DNA of 41,636 bases. Source: an archaeon. Lineage in GTDB: Archaea; Nanobdellota; Nanobdellia; SCGC-AAA011-G17; GCA-2687815. The stretch is taken from positions 1 through 41,636 of the forward strand of contig NZBH01000008.1 of NCBI GenBank assembly GCA_002687815.1, read 5' to 3'. The position numbers were made by a program, and so were the translations under genes. Of this stretch, positions 3,936 to 12,204 are shown piece after piece. Numbering within the stretch: position 1 is the first letter of the stretch; the number at the start of each line of letters is the position of its first letter. The notes under the pieces were generated by a model. The model saw nothing but the letters and a program-made list of their open reading frames with translations. It did not search any database and was not told the origin of the DNA.

Positions 3936-4259
3936 ATGTTTGATAAAATAAAACAATTCTTTACTTTGTTTGGAATATTTGCTTTAATTGCGATCTTCTA
4001 TATAACTAAGAAGAAGTTTGAAATTAACTCTCTTAAAAAGTTATTGGAGAAAGACTATAAAGCAAGATCTAATAAACTTACTGATAAACGTAAGGATTTA
4101 AAGAAGGCATTAAATAAAAGTAAAGGTAAAGACACTTCTATTCAAGATACTATAAGTACCTTAGATAAGGATAGACGGAGAATTAAGAATGAATCTAAAA
4201 AATTGGACAGCTCTGATCTTAGCTCTGCTATTGACAAATGGTATAAGTCAAGAGACTAA
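3936..4259 (+). CDS. lysis-associated membrane protein (holin- or i-spanin-like: N-terminal TM plus charged coiled coil)
   Basis: 107 aa. TM helix FFTLFGIFALIAIFYI followed by a Lys/Asp-rich helical tail. Lies immediately upstream of the endolysin. Confidence 0.55.
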   Translation: MFDKIKQFFTLFGIFALIAIFYITKKKFEINSLKKLLEKDYKARSNKLTDKRKDLKKALNKSKGKDTSIQDTISTLDKDRRRIKNESKKLDSSDLSSAIDKWYKSRD

Positions 4260-4545
4260 TGAAGTATGCTTGCCTGAGGCACAGATAAGGGCTTTATTTG
4301 AAGATGCACAATTACTTTCAATTTGTGAACAAGAAAAAGAACTATACAAATTAGTAGTATTTAACAGAGATACTACTATAAGAATACAGGATGAATTAAT
4401 TATAAATCTTGAAAGTCAAGTAGCTTTACAAGATAGTTTAATGACCGAAATGAGATCTGAAGTAGGAACAGACTGGTATATTAAATATCTTTTTTTAATA
4501 CTCGGAATAGGATTTACTTCTAGTATTAATTTTATAAATAATTAA
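4189..4545 (+). CDS. lysis-associated protein with N-terminal signal-like peptide and C-terminal TM (u-spanin-like topology)
   Basis: 118 aa. GGAG lies 9 nt upstream of the ATG. Overlaps the previous ORF by 71 nt in another frame. N-terminus WTALILALLLTNG, C-terminus YLFLILGIGFTSSINFI. No canonical lipobox. Confidence 0.5.
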   Translation: MNLKNWTALILALLLTNGISQETNEVCLPEAQIRALFEDAQLLSICEQEKELYKLVVFNRDTTIRIQDELIINLESQVALQDSLMTEMRSEVGTDWYIKYLFLILGIGFTSSINFINN

Positions 4546-4547
4546 AT

Positions 4548-5165
4548 ATGAATTTTATTATAAATTTTTTATTTAAAATAATTAATATTTTTTTATCTAA
4601 TAAAGATAAAAAGATTAATATTATTTCCAAAAAAGAAATAGACATAGAGGTAGAAAAGAATCTAGATAATAATACCGAGAATGTTTGTTCTCGGTATTTT
4701 ACTTTAGAAGAAATTACTAAATCAGAGACCGCAGTGAGGCAAGGTATACAAAATATACCTAGTAAAGATCAAATTTTTCAAACTCAACAGTTATGTTCTG
4801 TTATTATGGATAGAATTAGATCTCATTATAATAAACCTATTCGTATTTTGTCCGGTTATCGTTGTCAAGAGCTTAATAAAGTTATAGGAGGCTCTAAAAG
4901 CTCTCAACATATGGCTTTAAATAATGATGCGGCTATTGATTTTGAATTTTATGATCATCACATAAATTTAGAGTCTGTTTTTCATTGGATAACACAAATA
5001 TCTGATATTCATTTTGACCAATGTATTGCTGAGTTTTTACCTGAAGGTTGGATTCATATTAGTTATAACACAGACAGTGAAAAGAATAGAGGAAAAATAA
5101 CACGAGCTACAAAAATAAATAATAAAACTTTCTATGAACAGTTAGGATATGCAAAATGGATTTAA
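4548..5165 (+). CDS. endolysin, peptidase M15 (M15_3 / D-Ala-D-Ala carboxypeptidase-like zinc peptidase) with N-terminal hydrophobic segment
   Basis: Motifs SGYRCQELNKVIGGSKSSQH ... AAIDFEF ... GWIHISY fit the H-D-H zinc ligand pattern of PF08291-type phage peptidases. The start is 2 nt after the preceding stop. Confidence 0.8.
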   Translation: MNFIINFLFKIINIFLSNKDKKINIISKKEIDIEVEKNLDNNTENVCSRYFTLEEITKSETAVRQGIQNIPSKDQIFQTQQLCSVIMDRIRSHYNKPIRILSGYRCQELNKVIGGSKSSQHMALNNDAAIDFEFYDHHINLESVFHWITQISDIHFDQCIAEFLPEGWIHISYNTDSEKNRGKITRATKINNKTFYEQLGYAKWI

Positions 5166-5188: not shown

Positions 5189-6919
5189 ATGTCAAATCGT
5201 CAAATAGACACCCCTTGGGGGCCTTTATATGCAACAACAGCACAAACAAATTACTTTTTTGATACAGTTTCTTACACCGTACCACAAAATATAACAGATG
5301 GATGTAACTTACCAGATAATACTTTATCTATAGATTCTAATGGAAATATTTTATATAATTCATCAGAAGATATAGCCGGATTTCAATTTGAGGTTATTGG
5401 AACAGATCTAATAGCTAATTCTGCTAGCGGAGGTGATGCAGGCGAAGCAGGTTTCATGATGGTGTCTGGTACATCTATGATTATAGGATTTTCACTTGCA
5501 GGTACTGTTGTAGAGGCTGGTTGTGGTACATTAGTAGAAGTAGACTTTGAAAATGGAATTCCAGATGGTCTTAGTGATCTTATTATATCAGATAATATTG
5601 GAATGTTAATTGAACCATTTAATAATTTAGATACGTTGATTGGAGCAGAAGACTGGGTAGGAGCTTTTAGACCAGCCAATGTTTGTAATATAGCAGGACA
5701 ATTAAATCAGACTTCTTGTGAAGCTGCATCCGGAACATGGTTAACTGAAGAAGAACTGGTAGGCGCTAAACAATGGAATATCGGAGAATGTGGCCAATAT
5801 GTTTGTGATCTTGCAGTATATGGAACAGATACAGAAAATCCTGATACTGCAACTTATATGTCTCAGGGTCAGACTCCAATATTTAAAATTTATAATACCG
5901 AAGAGGAAGTATCTTATGATGCGATACCTACAACCTCAGATACACCCTGGACAGGCTCTGCTGGATCTATATATTATATAGAAGCCTTATTTGCAGGGTC
6001 TTCAGCTAATGAAGACTCAAATGATTTTGAAATAAGTTATAATATTGGTGGTGCGTGGAATCATTTAGTTTCATTTCCATTTGATTTTGATGGAGAAGAT
6101 GGGATAGGTGACATAGTGGGTTACGACGGACCCATAGAAGCAGTAATGGGTGCAGGTCAGGCAGCATTATTAGTAAATGGTGAATGGATTGGAGGTCTTC
6201 AAACTATTCTTCCTACCGATGGTTATTGGCTAGCCGGTACTTCATCAGATCCGTTAGTAGTTTCTGGTGGTTTTATAGAGAATCCAACTTATAATTTAAT
6301 TAATGGATATAATCTACTTTCATTTCCAGGCTCTGAAACTGCTTCTCTAGAAAGTAATTTTCCTCCAGGTAGTAATTCAGACTTTTTGAGTATAATTGGA
6401 GCAGGCCAAGCTGCTATACAAATAGCTGGTTGTACTGCTGTAAATGATGTATGTAGTGATCCTCAATGGACAACTGAAGCTGAATGCTACAGTCTGGCTG
6501 CCGGCAGTACTTGTACCGTAAATGGCACAGTTGATCCTCAATATACCACTTACCAGCAATGTTACTACGCTACAGGATGTAGTGATGATCAATATTCCGA
6601 TATAGCATCTTGTGAAGCTGCCTCTGAAACATGGGTATATAGTGCTATCTGGGCTAATGCAGAACAGTGGGGTACAACCGAAGCTAGTTGTGCTGCTGCT
6701 ACTACACCTTTTGGGGGTGGAACCTGGTATTACTCTTGGGTCGGAACTCTGCAAGATCTTGAACAAGGAAAGGGTTATTGGGTAACGACATCTGCTGCAA
6801 TAACTGGCTTTCAATATAATTTAGTAAAAGAAGGTTATTGTACCAATGCTGCTTATACAGATGAAGCTACTTGTATAACTAATGGATTTGCATGGAGAGA
6901 TCGATTAGTTAATGGCTAG
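5189..6919 (+). CDS. fibre-like / host-recognition structural protein with cohesin-like N-terminal beta domain and multiple Cys motifs
   Basis: 576 aa with SD AAAAGGAGA. DIAGFQFEVIGTD...IIGFSLAGTVVEAGCGTLVEVDF resembles cohesin-type beta-sandwich signatures (low certainty). At least 4 copies of the C-x4-Y/W-x5-C-x5-7-W motif. Confidence 0.65.
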   Translation: MSNRQIDTPWGPLYATTAQTNYFFDTVSYTVPQNITDGCNLPDNTLSIDSNGNILYNSSEDIAGFQFEVIGTDLIANSASGGDAGEAGFMMVSGTSMIIGFSLAGTVVEAGCGTLVEVDFENGIPDGLSDLIISDNIGMLIEPFNNLDTLIGAEDWVGAFRPANVCNIAGQLNQTSCEAASGTWLTEEELVGAKQWNIGECGQYVCDLAVYGTDTENPDTATYMSQGQTPIFKIYNTEEEVSYDAIPTTSDTPWTGSAGSIYYIEALFAGSSANEDSNDFEISYNIGGAWNHLVSFPFDFDGEDGIGDIVGYDGPIEAVMGAGQAALLVNGEWIGGLQTILPTDGYWLAGTSSDPLVVSGGFIENPTYNLINGYNLLSFPGSETASLESNFPPGSNSDFLSIIGAGQAAIQIAGCTAVNDVCSDPQWTTEAECYSLAAGSTCTVNGTVDPQYTTYQQCYYATGCSDDQYSDIASCEAASETWVYSAIWANAEQWGTTEASCAAATTPFGGGTWYYSWVGTLQDLEQGKGYWVTTSAAITGFQYNLVKEGYCTNAAYTDEATCITNGFAWRDRLVNG

Positions 6920-7463: not shown

Positions 7464-7670
7464 CCCTTTAAACTCTTCAGGGTATTTATTTACAGTATAA
7501 GTAATAACGGCACTAGAACTCGCTAGTAATGAGCCTATTATATAAAGCATCATAGTTAACCATGAATCTATTCCTGACCATGCTTGACTGATAGCTGTAC
7601 CAACTATTAATCCTGATCCATATAAAAAATATCTATAAAATATTCTAATTCCTTTTATTTTAAACATCAT
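7455..7670 (-). CDS. small membrane protein (2 predicted TM helices)
   Basis: 71 aa and hydrophobic. ATGA-type overlap with the uvrD-like stop. Overlaps the 3' end of the convergent + strand gene by 9 nt. Confidence 0.55.
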   Translation of the reverse strand: MMFKIKGIRIFYRYFLYGSGLIVGTAISQAWSGIDSWLTMMLYIIGSLLASSSAVITYTVNKYPEEFKGLL

Positions 7671-9529
7671 CGTTTTAATTCCTTATATTTACTTGGTATT
7701 TGTTCTATAAAATGAGATCGATAATAATAAGTTTCTTGACCGTACTTATAACGTCTTTTTGAATAAGTTAAATAAGCCTTATTCTTTGCTCTAGTAAGGG
7801 CTACATAAAATAATCGTCTTTCTTCTTCTAATTCTTTATGTGTATCTACTGGTAATGGAAATAATCCCTCCATTAACCCACAAATAAATATTACTGAATA
7901 TTCTAATCCTTTTGATGCATGTGCAGTCATTAAAGTAATACAATTTTTATTATCCTCTTTATTTGATGCTGCTAATGCTGCATCTTGAAGAAAATTAGTT
8001 AATTCTAATGAATCTGTTTCTTCTAAACTAATTAAAGTATTAATGAGTTCCATGATATTTCCATTCCTATCTATATCACTATTTTCATTTATATCAGTCC
8101 AATATTCTCTTATTTTAAAAGTAGTTATAATATCTTTTATTAAGATAGATATAGTCTTATGTTCTTTATAATTATTCTTTAATGTTATAATATTATTATA
8201 AAAATTAGTATGTATTTCTTGACATGATTCAAATAAAGTATTATTATTATTAAAGTCAGCTAAGTTTACTAACTTTTCCATAGATTTTTTCCCAAAACCT
8301 TTTGGAGGAAAATTAATTACTCTGTTTAATGCTATATTATCTTTAGTATTATTAATTAATTTTAAAAATGATATAATATCTTTTATTTCTTTTCTAGCAT
8401 AAAAATTAAGACCTCCCACAATGCGATATGGAATATTATTTCTTCTAGCTAAATCTTCCAATACTCTACTTTGAATATTAGTTCTATAAAGAATAGCAAT
8501 ATCTTCATATTTATGTTTTGTATTTAAAGTTCTAATTTCTGAAATAATTCTAGATGCTTCTTCATATTCATTTGGTTCTTTAAAAATAGTAATTCTTTTC
8601 TTATCATCAGATCTATTAGGTATTAATTTTTTATCAGTTTTATTTATATTTAAATCTATTATATTTTGAGCAGCCTGTATAATCCTAGGACGAGATCTAT
8701 AGTTTATTTCTAATTTAGATACCTTACAATCAGGATAGTAAATATTAAAGTTTAGTAAATAATCAATATCAGATCCTCTCCATCCATATATACTTTGATT
8801 ATCATCCCCTACAACACAGAGTTTTGTTTTTTTACCTACCAGTTTTCTAATTATTTCAAACTGAGGTTTATTAGTATCTTGGAATTCATCTACAAAAATA
8901 TATTTATATTTTTCTTGTAAAACTGTTCGTATATCATTATCCTCTAAAATATCAAGAGTTAATAATAATAAATCATCAAAATCTATTGAATTATTTTGAG
9001 CTAGTATTTCATTATACTCTTGATATAAAGTTATAAATTCTAAAGAAGAACTATCTTCTAATATATGCATCATACTATCGGGAGTCTTCATATTATTTTT
9101 AGAAAAAGATATATCATTTTTTAATTTATATGAAGTATATTTAGAGTCTGGATAATTTTCAAGAATTTTTTCTATAACTTTAATTTGATCCTTTTCATCA
9201 TATATTGTAAAATTTGATTCTAGATTTACTTTTGTATAATATGTTCTAAGAATTCTATTACATAATGAATGAAATGTACAGGCTAATACACCGCTAGACT
9301 GTCCTATAAGAGTTGCTATTCGATCCTTCATTTCGTTGGCTGCTTTATTAGTAAATGTTATAGCCACTATACTATGTCCTGGTACTTTTTGATCACAAAG
9401 ATAAGCTATTTTATGTGTTAAAGTTCGTGTTTTACCACTTCCAGCACCGGCTAGTATTATTTGATGATTATCATTAAATAAAACAGCACTTTTCTGTTCT
9501 TGATTCAAGTCTTGTAAAATTTTATTCAT
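7667..9529 (-). CDS. UvrD/PcrA/Rep-type SF1A DNA helicase
   Basis: LNQEQKSAV...ILAGAGSGKTRTLTHKIAYL (Walker A), VDEFQDTN, GDDNQSIYGWRG, TAHASKGLEYSVIF, RRLFYVALTRAK. Confidence 0.9.
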   Translation of the reverse strand: MNKILQDLNQEQKSAVLFNDNHQIILAGAGSGKTRTLTHKIAYLCDQKVPGHSIVAITFTNKAANEMKDRIATLIGQSSGVLACTFHSLCNRILRTYYTKVNLESNFTIYDEKDQIKVIEKILENYPDSKYTSYKLKNDISFSKNNMKTPDSMMHILEDSSSLEFITLYQEYNEILAQNNSIDFDDLLLLTLDILEDNDIRTVLQEKYKYIFVDEFQDTNKPQFEIIRKLVGKKTKLCVVGDDNQSIYGWRGSDIDYLLNFNIYYPDCKVSKLEINYRSRPRIIQAAQNIIDLNINKTDKKLIPNRSDDKKRITIFKEPNEYEEASRIISEIRTLNTKHKYEDIAILYRTNIQSRVLEDLARRNNIPYRIVGGLNFYARKEIKDIISFLKLINNTKDNIALNRVINFPPKGFGKKSMEKLVNLADFNNNNTLFESCQEIHTNFYNNIITLKNNYKEHKTISILIKDIITTFKIREYWTDINENSDIDRNGNIMELINTLISLEETDSLELTNFLQDAALAASNKEDNKNCITLMTAHASKGLEYSVIFICGLMEGLFPLPVDTHKELEEERRLFYVALTRAKNKAYLTYSKRRYKYGQETYYYRSHFIEQIPSKYKELKR

Positions 9530-9567
9530 ATTTTATATTATTAGTTTTTTTAATTAAAGGTTCGGGT

Positions 9568-11439
9568 CTATTTTGATAATGTTACTATTTTAGTCTCTAC
9601 AATAGTATTATCTTTTATTAATGAAATAAAATATATTCCACTAGAAACTTTTTCTGCATTCCAAGTTACATTATATGCACCAGGTAACGGAGAACCATCA
9701 AACAAAGTTTTTATTTGTTTACCTGAAATATCTCTAACTTTAAGAAATATATTAGAATACATTGGTACATTATATTTTATAGTAACGGAATTATTAAATG
9801 GATTGGGATAGGGTGCACCAAGACTATATGTTAAGGGATTTATAGAGTAATTATTTTCTACAGATAAAAGACAATCTTGCCAAGTAATTATATGATCTGA
9901 AATACAAGAAGGATATGGATAACAGAAATTATTCTCAGTTAAACCTATAGTTATTTCATTATCAATAAGAATACAAATACTGTCTGAGAAAATCTCTCCA
10001 AGATTGTTATCATGTAAAAAAAGATAATTTAATTCAGGTAAAATAAAAATAGAATTAGGAATATTTCCAATTAAATTATTTTTTGATAAAATAATACTAT
10101 TTAAATTTGATAAATTTCCAATATTTTCTGGAATCTTACCCCCAATATTATTATTACCTAAATTTAAAGTTTTTAATTCTGTTAAATTTCCAATAGATTC
10201 AGGAATTTGACCAGTAAGTCCTTCTTCATATAATTTTAATTCTATTAATCTTCCATTAAACCAAACTTGATCCCCTATAGATACCGGATCTTGTCCTTGT
10301 AATTCTTCAAATGAATCAACAAAGTTTTGTAAGATATCAATATCATTTTGAGAATAATAATCAGAATTACAATCAAACCATTGCATAGTTGAATCGGAGA
10401 ATGGTGAATTAAAAACAAATAATCCATTTTCTCTATCACTTGATATAAGATATCCACTAGGTAACTCAGTATATACACCCCAATTTCCACTAAACGGAGC
10501 CTCTAGATTTGTAGTATCGTAATAACCAATTTCAATTGGATTAAATGGATCAGATATATCAAGAACACGAGTTCCAGCTGTGTAATAAGATATTACTACA
10601 AATCCATCTTTAACATATACATTATGAGCAGATTGAACAAAAGATGTATAAATACCTTCGAAAGTTTGATATTCAGATAATAAATTTATATTATTATAAT
10701 TTGAAATATCCCATATTTTAACATGCCCTCCTATATTTTCATCAGCTGTAATTAGATATTTTTCATCTGCCGTTACCGCTACATCATGAAGACTTATATA
10801 GCCTCCTCCAGAGTCCCAAATACCGATAGTCTCTGGATTAGTTTTATTACTTACATCAATAATATAGAAATATCCTGTATATATTCCCGCTCCATATACT
10901 TTATTATTATATACTTCAATATCATGTAAATATCCACCTTCCCATGTACCAATTAATTCTGGTAATTCTGGAGTGCTTAAATCATAAATCCATATATCAT
11001 GATCATTAGCACCCACTACGTAAAGATAACCATCTGCATCAATATGAATATTATGACTATTAGTAATAGCAGTAATAGTATGTACTAAAATAGGAGTATA
11101 AGGATCTTCAACACTTACTATTTTTATTCCATCTGCTGCTTCTGTTCCTATATAAACATATTTATTCCAATATTTTATATCTCTCCATTCACTAAAAGTA
11201 CCCTCTATATATTCAATCTCAACTGGTTGAGTTGGAACCGTAATATCTATAAATGATACTCCTTCTGTAAGACCTACTACAGCAAATTCTTTGCCATCTA
11301 ATTCAAATCCTGTTAAATCAGATACTCCTTGATTGTCAAAATCATTAAATATACTAAGTAATTCTATATTACAGCTTTCTCCCGCAGACTGAGAAAATAG
11401 TGAAGTAAACATTATTAAATAAATTAAATAATATTTCAT
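9568..11439 (-). CDS. secreted protein: signal peptide + LVIVD-repeat beta-propeller + plant-type LRRs + T9SS (Por) C-terminal sorting domain
   Basis: The track start at 11448 is a TTG. The ATG at 11439 gives MKYYLIYLIMFTSLFSQSAG, a signal peptide. Repeated xxVxDISxP motifs (IWIYDLSTP, FYIIDVSNKTNP, VKIWDISN, TRVLDISDPFNP). LRRs: LTGQIPESIGNLTELKTLNLGNNNIGGKIPENIGNLSNL. C-terminus: YPNPFNNSVTIKYNVP...ISGKQIKTLFDG...GAYNVTWNAEKVSSGIYFISL. Confidence 0.8.
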   Translation of the reverse strand: MKYYLIYLIMFTSLFSQSAGESCNIELLSIFNDFDNQGVSDLTGFELDGKEFAVVGLTEGVSFIDITVPTQPVEIEYIEGTFSEWRDIKYWNKYVYIGTEAADGIKIVSVEDPYTPILVHTITAITNSHNIHIDADGYLYVVGANDHDIWIYDLSTPELPELIGTWEGGYLHDIEVYNNKVYGAGIYTGYFYIIDVSNKTNPETIGIWDSGGGYISLHDVAVTADEKYLITADENIGGHVKIWDISNYNNINLLSEYQTFEGIYTSFVQSAHNVYVKDGFVVISYYTAGTRVLDISDPFNPIEIGYYDTTNLEAPFSGNWGVYTELPSGYLISSDRENGLFVFNSPFSDSTMQWFDCNSDYYSQNDIDILQNFVDSFEELQGQDPVSIGDQVWFNGRLIELKLYEEGLTGQIPESIGNLTELKTLNLGNNNIGGKIPENIGNLSNLNSIILSKNNLIGNIPNSIFILPELNYLFLHDNNLGEIFSDSICILIDNEITIGLTENNFCYPYPSCISDHIITWQDCLLSVENNYSINPLTYSLGAPYPNPFNNSVTIKYNVPMYSNIFLKVRDISGKQIKTLFDGSPLPGAYNVTWNAEKVSSGIYFISLIKDNTIVETKIVTLSK

Positions 11440-11500
11440 AAATTCCAATTTTTTATAGTTTTAAAAATCAATACTAAAGGTTCGTCCCTAAAGAATATGT

Positions 11501-11530
11501 AAAAAATGGGGGGAGAAACCCTCCCCCCAT
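11501..11530 (-). terminator. Rho-independent terminator
   Basis: On the - strand: ATGGGGGGAG-GGTTT-CTCCCCCCAT (10-bp stem) followed by TTTTTT, 20 nt after the stop of the 77-aa ORF. Confidence 0.85.
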
Positions 11531-11549
11531 TTACAGTGATATTACTATG

Positions 11550-11783
11550 TTAGCTTCTGTGGTAAAACATACCAATCAGAATCAACAGCGAAACCACGCC
11601 AGCAAAGCCAGCAGAACCAACGGCACCAACTAAACTTACAATATTTGTAAGTACGCTAGTTCCGAAGTATGCAGTTCCAAAAAGGATCTCGGTTAGCACT
11701 GCAAGTGCTACAAGCCCCATAGATAAATGGACTAAACCATCAACCCAATCGCCAACTGTGGCGAACATTGTTTTCGTATTCAT
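11550..11783 (-). CDS. small hydrophobic membrane protein, visibly G+C-richer than its surroundings
   Basis: 77 aa with 2-3 TM segments (LVALAVLTEILFG, VGAVGSAGFAGVVSLLILIGMF). Strong SD CAAGGAGA upstream and a strong terminator downstream. Confidence 0.7.
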   Translation of the reverse strand: MNTKTMFATVGDWVDGLVHLSMGLVALAVLTEILFGTAYFGTSVLTNIVSLVGAVGSAGFAGVVSLLILIGMFYHRS

Positions 11784-11799: not shown

Positions 11800-12204
11800 T
11801 TAGTTAACCTTTATTTGCTTTGAAATAGTAGTCTTATTCGAGGCCGGAATTGTAATCCTAAGTAGTCCATCCTTAGCAATCGCTGTAATACTATCAATAT
11901 CACAATTTTCACTAAGTCTGAACGACCTTCGAAAGTTTCTAAGAACTAAGCTACTATCATTAGTTATGTCATTTTTACTACTGATAGTAAGGATATCATG
12001 AATAATATCAATATTAATATCCTTTTTTGCATAGCCTGGAACTGCCATTTCTACTACCTGGTCCCCATTTTTGTCAGTAAAATTACTATATGACACAGAG
12101 GATGAAGGCCTACTAAAAGGCCATTCAATTTCAGACGTAAATCCAGATAAGCCGTCTAACAGATTATGTAATCCGTTAGGTCTATTTGTTAATGAACTAT
12201 TCAT
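11800..12204 (-). CDS. small heat-shock protein, Hsp20/alpha-crystallin family
   Basis: VVEMAVPGYAKKDINIDIIHDILTISSK...FRRSFRLSENCDIDSITAIAKDGLLRITIP is the alpha-crystallin domain pattern. SD GAAGGAGA lies 5 nt upstream. Confidence 0.85.
   Translation of the reverse strand: MNSSLTNRPNGLHNLLDGLSGFTSEIEWPFSRPSSSVSYSNFTDKNGDQVVEMAVPGYAKKDINIDIIHDILTISSKNDITNDSSLVLRNFRRSFRLSENCDIDSITAIAKDGLLRITIPASNKTTISKQIKVN

Follow-up and report, generated by a model that had tools for sequence, protein, structure and literature searches.

Putative phage-encoded cargo of the type IX secretion system

The closest described system is that of the Bacteroidetes 'Cryophage', in which three genes bearing a type IX secretion system (T9SS) C-terminal sorting domain (CTD), coding for an endoglucanase, a GH39 protein and a PA14 protein, were found in flexible genome regions (Bellas et al. 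2020, PMC7468147). A hijacking of the host T9SS was proposed for them, possibly leading to superinfection exclusion. Here we describe a gene, hereafter the target, located at positions 9568 to 11439 (minus strand) of contig NZBH01000008.1, whose full 41,636 bp were analysed and are called the window. The window, labelled '[archaeon]' in its record, is phage DNA, and the target codes for a 623-aa protein that combines a signal-peptide-like N-terminus, a beta-propeller, plant-type leucine-rich repeats (LRRs) and a type A CTD. With a probability of about 0.6, the target is a moron-like phage accessory gene that originated from a surface protein of Candidatus Marinimicrobia (SAR406), and whose product would be exported through the host Sec and T9SS pathways, remodelling the surface of the infected cell.

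Phage-encoded T9SS cargo thus has a precedent in Cryophage, and the same principle is proposed here. In both cases genes with a type A domain occupy flexible accessory positions, and both rest on sequence analysis. Cryophage is assigned to a Bacteroidetes host and its cargo consists of enzymes and a PA14 protein, whereas the likely host here belongs to Marinimicrobia, outside Bacteroidota, and what would be secreted is the homologue, in compacted form, of one of its surface proteins. This homologue is built from modules of the binding type (propeller plus LRRs), and the host orthologue and its locus were identified. The host phylum, a cargo type with an identified orthologue and the pairing with a second host-derived gene are new. 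Our literature searches found no phage-encoded T9SS cargo other than that of Cryophage; a second case, with an identifiable host orthologue, would make the idea of such cargo testable.

The type A CTD (PF18962/TIGR04183) is the T9SS signal, and the distribution of the proteins that carry it tracks that of the T9SS core genes (PMC10202324). This domain is an Ig-like seven-strand sandwich (PMC4804311, PMC10202324), and its removal by PorU is described as sequence-independent (PMC4804311). Inside the pore of the translocon, T9SS substrates are bound to a carrier protein (PMC10994853). The type A cargo of Bacteroidota (RgpB, mirolase, RemA and the endonuclease I of Flavobacterium johnsoniae) combines an N-terminal signal peptide with an Ig-like C-terminal sorting domain of about 80 aa that matches PF18962/TIGR04183. 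The target has a putative signal peptide and a C-terminal match to both families; it differs from that cargo in that the passenger domains are unrelated, the gene is viral and the organism predicted to secrete its product lies outside Bacteroidota.

Domain composition and predicted structure

The target protein is identical to the NCBI entry MAG50188.1 ('hypothetical protein CL621_00940 [archaeon]'); an alternative TTG start, three codons upstream of the ATG in the list of open reading frames (ORFs), would give 626 aa. Domain calls were judged against the curated gathering (GA) thresholds of Pfam and the cut-offs of NCBIfam. Searches with hidden Markov models matched the C-terminus to both type A families, Por_Secre_tail PF18962 (34.8 bits, GA 27; aa 544-619 on profile positions 2-74 of 75) and TIGR04183 (27.9 bits, cut-off 23), bearing out the sorting domain that a preliminary description, made from the sequence alone, had placed there. 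The PF18962 match runs as far as residue 619 of 623; the last residues of the target (...TKIVTLSK) align with those of the host proteins described below (...QKVVLLK). A profile search with the CTD gave weak matches to the CTDs of RgpB, mirolase and endonuclease I, and all the matched solved structures were T9SS CTDs.

The AlphaFold2 (AF2) model of the whole target was built on 57 homologues and had a mean predicted local distance difference test score (pLDDT) of 86.6. It consisted of a helix, a propeller, an LRR solenoid, a disordered linker and a C-terminal beta-sandwich, in line with the expected layout. The sandwich spanned aa 551-620, and a model of the CTD alone was also a beta-sandwich, with a pLDDT of 95. 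At the other end, aa 2-14 formed a detached helix. By heuristic inspection, the N-terminus has Lys2, a hydrophobic core of 13 residues (Kyte-Doolittle maximum 2.28) and a c-region of small residues (SQSAG), and it could be aligned with the corresponding ends of P0004 and P0012, orthologues from the host. On these heuristic criteria it is signal-peptide-like, a putative Sec signal peptide as first proposed.

The preliminary description had counted at least six LVIVD repeats (xxVxDISxPxxP); six clear repeats and a partial seventh were found, the LVIVD family PF08309 scored 33.6 bits (GA 20.2), and the AF2 model showed 28 strands in seven four-stranded blades (aa 26-344), mostly with pLDDT above 90. 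The propeller therefore stood, and its family assignment was sharpened to a name not given at first, choice-of-anchor B (TIGR04312, 152.4 bits against a cut-off of 100), with aa 24-343 aligned to positions 14-362 of the 364 in the profile. A fold search of the whole protein against PDB returned generic seven-blade propellers alone (TM-score 0.6-0.8). Between aa 129 and 273, invariant His-Asp/Asn pairs open the second strand of successive blades (SHNIHID, LHDIEV, HDxAV and HNVY, plus GGHxKIWD), which suggests a possible metal- or ligand-binding ring. The phage copy retains these recurring pairs, yet H269Q and C220V are altered in it.

The plant-type LRRs reported initially were likewise recovered, as four canonical LxxLxLxxNxLxGxIPxxIGN repeats of 24 residues each (aa 394-490), flanked by an N-cap helix and, at the other end, a C-cap rich in Cys, and as a 72-nt periodicity in the DNA. 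Both LRR_8 (28.3 bits, GA 27) and LRR_1 (22.9 bits, GA 20.6) exceeded their Pfam thresholds, and the solenoid, N-cap helix included, covered aa 364-501 of the AF2 model. The top PDB sequence matches were ectodomains of plant LRR receptor-like kinases (GSO1/FLS2), again including the N-cap, and the linker and N-cap matched the SERK/PSKR N-cap region. Among the target orthologues, C357, C489 and C512 were invariant. Residues 519-532, ahead of the CTD, had pLDDT below 50, and such a disordered linker is compatible, in the model, with processing by PorU.

Descent from a Marinimicrobia surface protein

Marinimicrobia abound in dark and low-oxygen ocean waters, and hardly any of them are in culture. 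They have recently been renamed Fidelibacterota (PMC11652737). The best homologues of the target, 45-64% identical, were named by NCBI as 'choice-of-anchor B family protein [Candidatus Marinimicrobia bacterium]'. When one genome from each of 185,579 species was scanned with a pattern, 38 loci were returned; every named locus with 44-64% identity belonged to Candidatus Neomarinimicrobiota, the outlier being one Saprospiraceae genome with 33%. No relative was detected among 50,697 GenBank phages, nor in two pattern-limited scans of IMG/VR. The nearest relatives are cellular and not virion proteins. The PNPFN-type CTD had been taken at first sight to point outside Bacteroidia, with Marinimicrobia named first, and the homologues agree with that choice.

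The host genes lie on long chromosomal contigs, in a conserved island where YceI, MORN and a gene of 75 aa precede the orthologue and, in this order, an LRR gene, an FG-GAP/dockerin gene, genes for giant CTD proteins and Lon follow it. Host orthologues bear the same signal peptide and CTD as the phage protein. P0004 (870 aa, GCA_014381415.1), for example, shows the same order of signal peptide, TIGR04312 propeller, LRRs and type A CTD, and proteins such as this one are 48-52% identical to the target overall; by domain, identity to the host proteins is about 64% in the propeller, 45% in the LRRs and 44% in the CTD. Relative to the full-length host type, the target is short of the first LRR block, of about 200 aa; the signal peptide and the CTD are retained, as are the propeller and one LRR block. 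It also differs from the orthologues in its 24-residue plant-type repeats, its phage codon usage and its location in a phage replication module rather than in a surface-protein island, and it forms a long branch inside the choice-of-anchor B family (neighbour-joining tree). The plant-type N.L.G.IP motif is native to the LRR gene adjoining the host orthologue, and the LRR block of the target is about 36% identical to the orthologue's own LRRs and equally to that adjacent gene. A mosaic origin of this block was considered, and the equal identities speak neither for it nor against it. In the close Marinimicrobia homologues the choice-of-anchor B domain is joined to alternative anchors, with either Por_Secre_tail or Dockerin_1 after the propeller. 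Taken together, these comparisons show, at the level of sequence, descent of the target from a Candidatus Marinimicrobia cell-surface protein of the choice-of-anchor B/LRR/T9SS-CTD type.

The preliminary description had noted strong Shine-Dalgarno (SD) sites in most genes of the window and had regarded them as atypical of Bacteroidia. SD-like motifs were found ahead of 29 of the 45 ORFs in the window, against a background of about 10%; the target ATG was among those without one, as were the host LRR-CTD orthologues. Marinimicrobia genes had such motifs in 21 of 67 cases, about three times the same background, so that SD use does not conflict with a Marinimicrobia host.

Age of the acquisition

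The target has a GC content of 27.7%, with 10.3% at third codon positions (GC3), and a codon-usage distance to the rest of the phage of 0.57, within the values of the other phage genes (0.44-0.90). For the host homologues, GC3 is 26-31% and the distance 1.1-1.5. Of the 119 propeller positions with at least 95% conservation across the host sequences, 107 are unchanged in the phage copy, against a match to the consensus at only 9 of 44 variable positions, which argues for purifying selection on the target. Phage-like codon usage and the retention of conserved positions rule out a chimera or a recent capture; the cellular relatives had been expected to indicate the latter, and that expectation did not hold. 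The target is an old, codon-ameliorated acquisition kept under selection.

Position in the phage backbone

As first described, the window is a phage, with tail fibre, lysis cassette and replication genes. On the plus strand it encodes a tail fibre with a Peptidase_S74 chaperone domain, the lysis cassette and an HNH endonuclease. The minus strand encodes a UvrD-like helicase, Hsp20, a metallophosphoesterase, a clamp loader, a RecD-like helicase and a ribonucleotide reductase, together with an exonuclease, a primase, DNA polymerase I, UvsX, SbcCD and a ligase. The '[archaeon]' label is a binning error; the window is a tailed-phage fragment whose accessory genes point to Marinimicrobia. Its DNA polymerase I reaches 28% identity at most with any GenBank phage, and the phage lineage is therefore unclassified.

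The closest viral relative, an IMG/VR contig (L005) found through the helicase, is collinear with the window from the ribonucleotide reductase to the lysis genes, with 30-74% amino acid identity. Its gene order is Hsp20, terminator, an ORF of 113 aa and helicase, and the target is absent; in the window the order is Hsp20, an ORF for a 77-aa membrane protein, a strong terminator, a 65-nt spacer, the target and the helicase. The terminator after Hsp20 in the relative is equivalent to that of the window, backbone genes conserved in the relative stand on both sides of the target, and a terminator scan detected none between the target and the helicase. Because the relative has a different ORF at this site and no terminator intervenes, the target occupies a variable slot and is probably co-transcribed with the UvrD-like helicase. 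A phage moron would be missing from this site in a collinear relative and bounded by transcription signals of its own. The absence and the upstream terminator are seen here, but no promoter was identified, no terminator separates the target from the helicase and the flanking 10-mer described below is not significant, so that the target is a candidate moron.

The same gene order, with a protein identical at 622 of 623 residues, was found in three other assemblies, one member of this cluster coming from the mesopelagic 0.1-0.22 µm fraction of Tara station 037. Since these assemblies may re-use the same Tara reads, they support the structure of the contig rather than represent independent populations. 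This bears on an explanation of the locus as a chimeric assembly, mis-binned host DNA or a decaying, functionless passenger, to which the wrong '[archaeon]' binning and the possible sharing of reads lend some colour. It is largely refuted and highly improbable: conserved backbone genes flank the target, its order recurs in the other assemblies, it resembles the phage and not the host in codon usage and GC3, and the ORF is intact, with 90% of the conserved positions kept versus 20% of the variable ones.

A second host-derived gene and the host surface-protein islands

The window carries a second accessory gene (5189-6919), which had no matches in Pfam, PHROG, NCBIfam or PADLOC, and whose product has neither a signal peptide nor a CTD. 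Its N-terminal module of about 105 aa (IxGFQFxV...SGGxA...GFM...GFSLTG) is 30-51% identical to tandem repeats of giant Por_Secre_tail proteins (L001, L003, L091, P0124) of the same Marinimicrobia island as the target orthologues, and a further homologue was found on a 1.7-Mb contig syntenic with that island. By sequence similarity, this gene is a second, independent link to a Marinimicrobia host, and it may encode a virion adhesin built from a host module. With two host-derived genes, Marinimicrobia becomes a likely and specific host assignment for this phage lineage. The module was also considered as a cohesin; its sole PDB match was a scaffoldin cohesin with an E value of 0.7 and Pfam gave no match, so that this identity was not established.

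The second gene also bears on whether the target is itself a virion component, that is, a tail-associated receptor-binding or decoration protein made of borrowed host modules, in which the N-terminus and the CTD-like fold would be unused relics. Phages use propellers and Ig-like domains in their fibres, BFVD holds many phage propeller proteins, some of them annotated as tail fibre, PHROG gave weak matches for the propeller and LRR parts, and the target lies near the boundary with the tail-fibre and lysis module; the CTD fold alone cannot be told from generic Ig-like domains, and this same phage did borrow host surface modules for a protein free of export signals. However, the target shares its strand with the replication genes, follows a terminator, is probably transcribed along with the helicase and has no structural PHROG annotation. 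Both of its export signals are intact after a divergence sufficient for full codon amelioration, with the CTD above the curated cut-offs, and the conserved cysteines of the LRR caps suit a fold formed in an oxidising, extracytoplasmic setting. Their retention stands out because the other host-derived gene has lost both, showing that the signals disappear when export is not wanted. We regard a place of the target in the virion as improbable.

The Marinimicrobia islands (L001, L003, L087, L091, L096) are dense in proteins tagged with Por_Secre_tail or Dockerin_1, beside giant CTD proteins with tandem GFQF modules, and at least seven distinct CTD-tagged proteins were counted in about 100 kb of Marinimicrobia DNA. 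This composition suggests a T9SS-anchored, cohesin-dockerin-like surface display system; our literature searches found no paper describing T9SS or cohesin-dockerin display in Marinimicrobia. The density of CTDs in these islands, together with a virus that keeps the tag, would argue for a working T9SS-like pathway outside Bacteroidota, contrary to current reviews. The dockerin-type choice-of-anchor B genes were consistently preceded by a multihaem cytochrome gene (Cytochrome_C554 or MtrC-like) and a TrAA12-like propeller gene (L087 7307-12148; L091 4751-12073). This neighbourhood is a hint that the domain family, not characterised otherwise, has a redox role outside the cell.

Such a role would fit a phage gene akin to an auxiliary metabolic gene, with the phage supplying a working host surface protein, still through Sec and T9SS, that keeps or boosts a host activity and has no part in competition between phages. 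Attachment to particles or prey, ligand capture and a metal-dependent extracellular reaction of the propeller are candidate activities. The His/Asp-rich blade motifs invariant in the family are conserved in the phage copy, the sole PDB sequence relative of the propeller is the metallo-phosphotriesterase 5hrm (E 6e-7, through one blade), and the cargo of the Cryophage precedent includes enzymes. The enzymatic reading is retained because the dockerin-type paralogues adjoin multihaem cytochromes and TrAA12-like genes; this context, however, is that of the dockerin-type paralogues and not of the LRR-CTD type that resembles the phage protein. The loss of the first LRR block and the alterations of H269 and C220 mean that the target is no like-for-like replacement, and the family to which it belongs is uncharacterised. 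On balance we consider this explanation unlikely, though worth keeping in view.

Proposed export and function of the target

Under the favoured reading, in which the target remodels the surface of the infected cell, the gene and the helicase downstream would be transcribed together during infection, under the target's own promoter, which would place its expression with the replication genes rather than with the late genes. The protein would be exported by Sec to the periplasm, where it would fold, probably forming disulfide bonds in the LRR caps; the host T9SS would recognise its type A CTD through the PorV carrier within the SprA translocon. It would then cross the outer membrane, lose the CTD by cleavage in the disordered linker and be attached to the cell surface or released. 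The infected cell probably displays the target through its own T9SS because both export signals have been kept. The displayed product would imitate, in compact form, a surface protein native to the host, with the same propeller and the first LRR block deleted. The surface of the infected cell may in this way be remodelled and a receptor masked or replaced, in which case superinfecting phages would be excluded and progeny would no longer be lost on infected cells or debris.

The T5 lipoprotein Llp and the superinfection-exclusion proteins of T-even phages are made by lytic-type phages before lysis, carry a host export signal, end in the envelope and alter what other phages bind. They offer a functional analogy for the favoured mechanism, with no relationship in sequence or fold to the target. 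They are small and follow Sec or Lol routes, whereas the target is a 623-aa multidomain protein with predicted T9SS routing, and its function is conjectural. Masking or replacement of a receptor is, with low confidence, the most likely benefit to the phage; it is favoured because the target is probably transcribed with replication genes and its product resembles a truncated mimic, and by analogy with exported exclusion proteins.

Several observations weigh against this interpretation. No T9SS core gene turned up in about five host neighbourhoods of 20 kb, in which no dedicated search for SprA, PorV, PorU or GldKLMN was made; no paper documenting T9SS core genes in Marinimicrobia was found, and T9SS is described in reviews as a system of Bacteroidota (PMC10202324). 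In a Foldseek search of the CTD, the PorU CTD (6za2) and a translocon-bound substrate CTD (8gl8_D) ranked no better than generic Ig-like/FN3 domains (E about 0.01), so that the modelled fold is compatible with a T9SS CTD without being specific for it. The target had no PADLOC-DB match to known defence or exclusion families (E ≤ 0.01), and choice-of-anchor B is an uncharacterised domain family. A few highly conserved propeller residues are altered in the phage copy (H269Q, C220V and D288A), and a single substitution among the population variants of the target makes dN/dS uninformative. Finally, no convincing sigma-70-type site was seen in the spacer that must hold the promoter, and a scan of the window yielded no more such sites than shuffled sequence.

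A bolder joint interpretation would involve both accessory genes. Giant T9SS-anchored, cohesin-like scaffolds would hold dockerin-tagged host proteins, propellers included; the virion would dock onto dockerin-bearing surface proteins through the cohesin-like module of the second gene, and the infected cell would secrete the truncated propeller-LRR mimic through T9SS, so that the receptor is masked or replaced and competitors are excluded. We rate this combination as a long shot. If true, it would provide the first functional evidence of a virus using T9SS outside Bacteroidota. More generally, the target would be an example of a phage keeping a host surface protein together with its addressing signals, which bears on how phages reshape the surfaces of their hosts in the ocean.

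Other features of the window

The features of the target and its surroundings are listed in Table 1.

Table 1. Coordinates of the target, its domains and neighbouring features in the window
Feature	Position	Strand	Basis or remarks
Target, whole coding sequence, 623 aa	9568..11439	-	ORF list; stop codon 9568-9570; Pfam and NCBIfam matches
Signal-peptide-like N-terminus, aa 1-20 (MKYYLIYLIMFTSLFSQSAG)	11380..11439	-	Composition heuristic, AF2, host orthologues
Seven-bladed LVIVD beta-propeller (choice-of-anchor B domain), aa 21-345	10405..11379	-	TIGR04312, PF08309, AF2
Linker and LRR N-cap helix, aa 346-395, with conserved Cys357	10255..10404	-	AF2 helix 364-376; PDB sequence matches
Four 24-residue plant-type LRRs, aa 396-500	9940..10254	-	LRR_8, LRR_1, PDB matches, DNA periodicity
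LRR C-cap rich in Cys, with disordered linker, aa 501-543; putative site at which the CTD is removed	9811..9939	-	pLDDT, cysteines
Type A T9SS C-terminal sorting domain, aa 544-623	9571..9810	-	PF18962, TIGR04183, AF2, host CTD identity
Upstream spacer, 65 nt, that must hold the target promoter	11440..11504	-	Sequence
Intrinsic terminator directly upstream of the target	11505..11528	-	GGGGGGAGGGTTTCTCCCCCC then T run
UvrD-like helicase	7667..9529	-	PHROG 1967; begins 38 nt downstream of the target
ORF of 77 aa, 2 or 3 predicted transmembrane segments, strong SD	11550..11783	-	Between Hsp20 and terminator; absent from L005; no family matches
Hsp20/alpha-crystallin small heat-shock protein, mid replication module	11800-12204	-	Conserved in L005 (9138-9608)
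Second accessory gene, 576 aa, Cys-rich	5189..6919	+	Between endolysin and HNH gene; absent from L005
Lysis cassette: holin-like 107-aa transmembrane protein, overlapping 118-aa spanin-like ORF with signal peptide, M15 endolysin	3936-5165	+	

The 77-aa ORF was considered as the counterpart of the 75-aa gene that is conserved upstream of the orthologues in the host, which would have made a two-gene cassette; no similarity was found between the two and the idea was rejected. A 10-mer, CGAACCTTTA, has just two copies in the window, at 11475-11484 and 9555-9564 (minus strand), in direct orientation and one in each of the spacers that flank the target. The match could not be extended, was absent from L005 and had a frequency of 0.009 in shuffled sequence. 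The window is AT-rich, and 25 of its 190 spacer pairs have some 10-mer in common; such sharing is frequent, and the 10-mer was rejected as an insertion scar, being probably a chance match.

The lysis cassette is typical for a phage of a diderm host, and its M15 endolysin has a hydrophobic N-terminus that may be a signal-anchor. A longer assembly of this phage (L093) covers the region just past the left end of the window (L093 19722-20581), which encodes a giant ORF of about 3,581 aa that runs off the locus.

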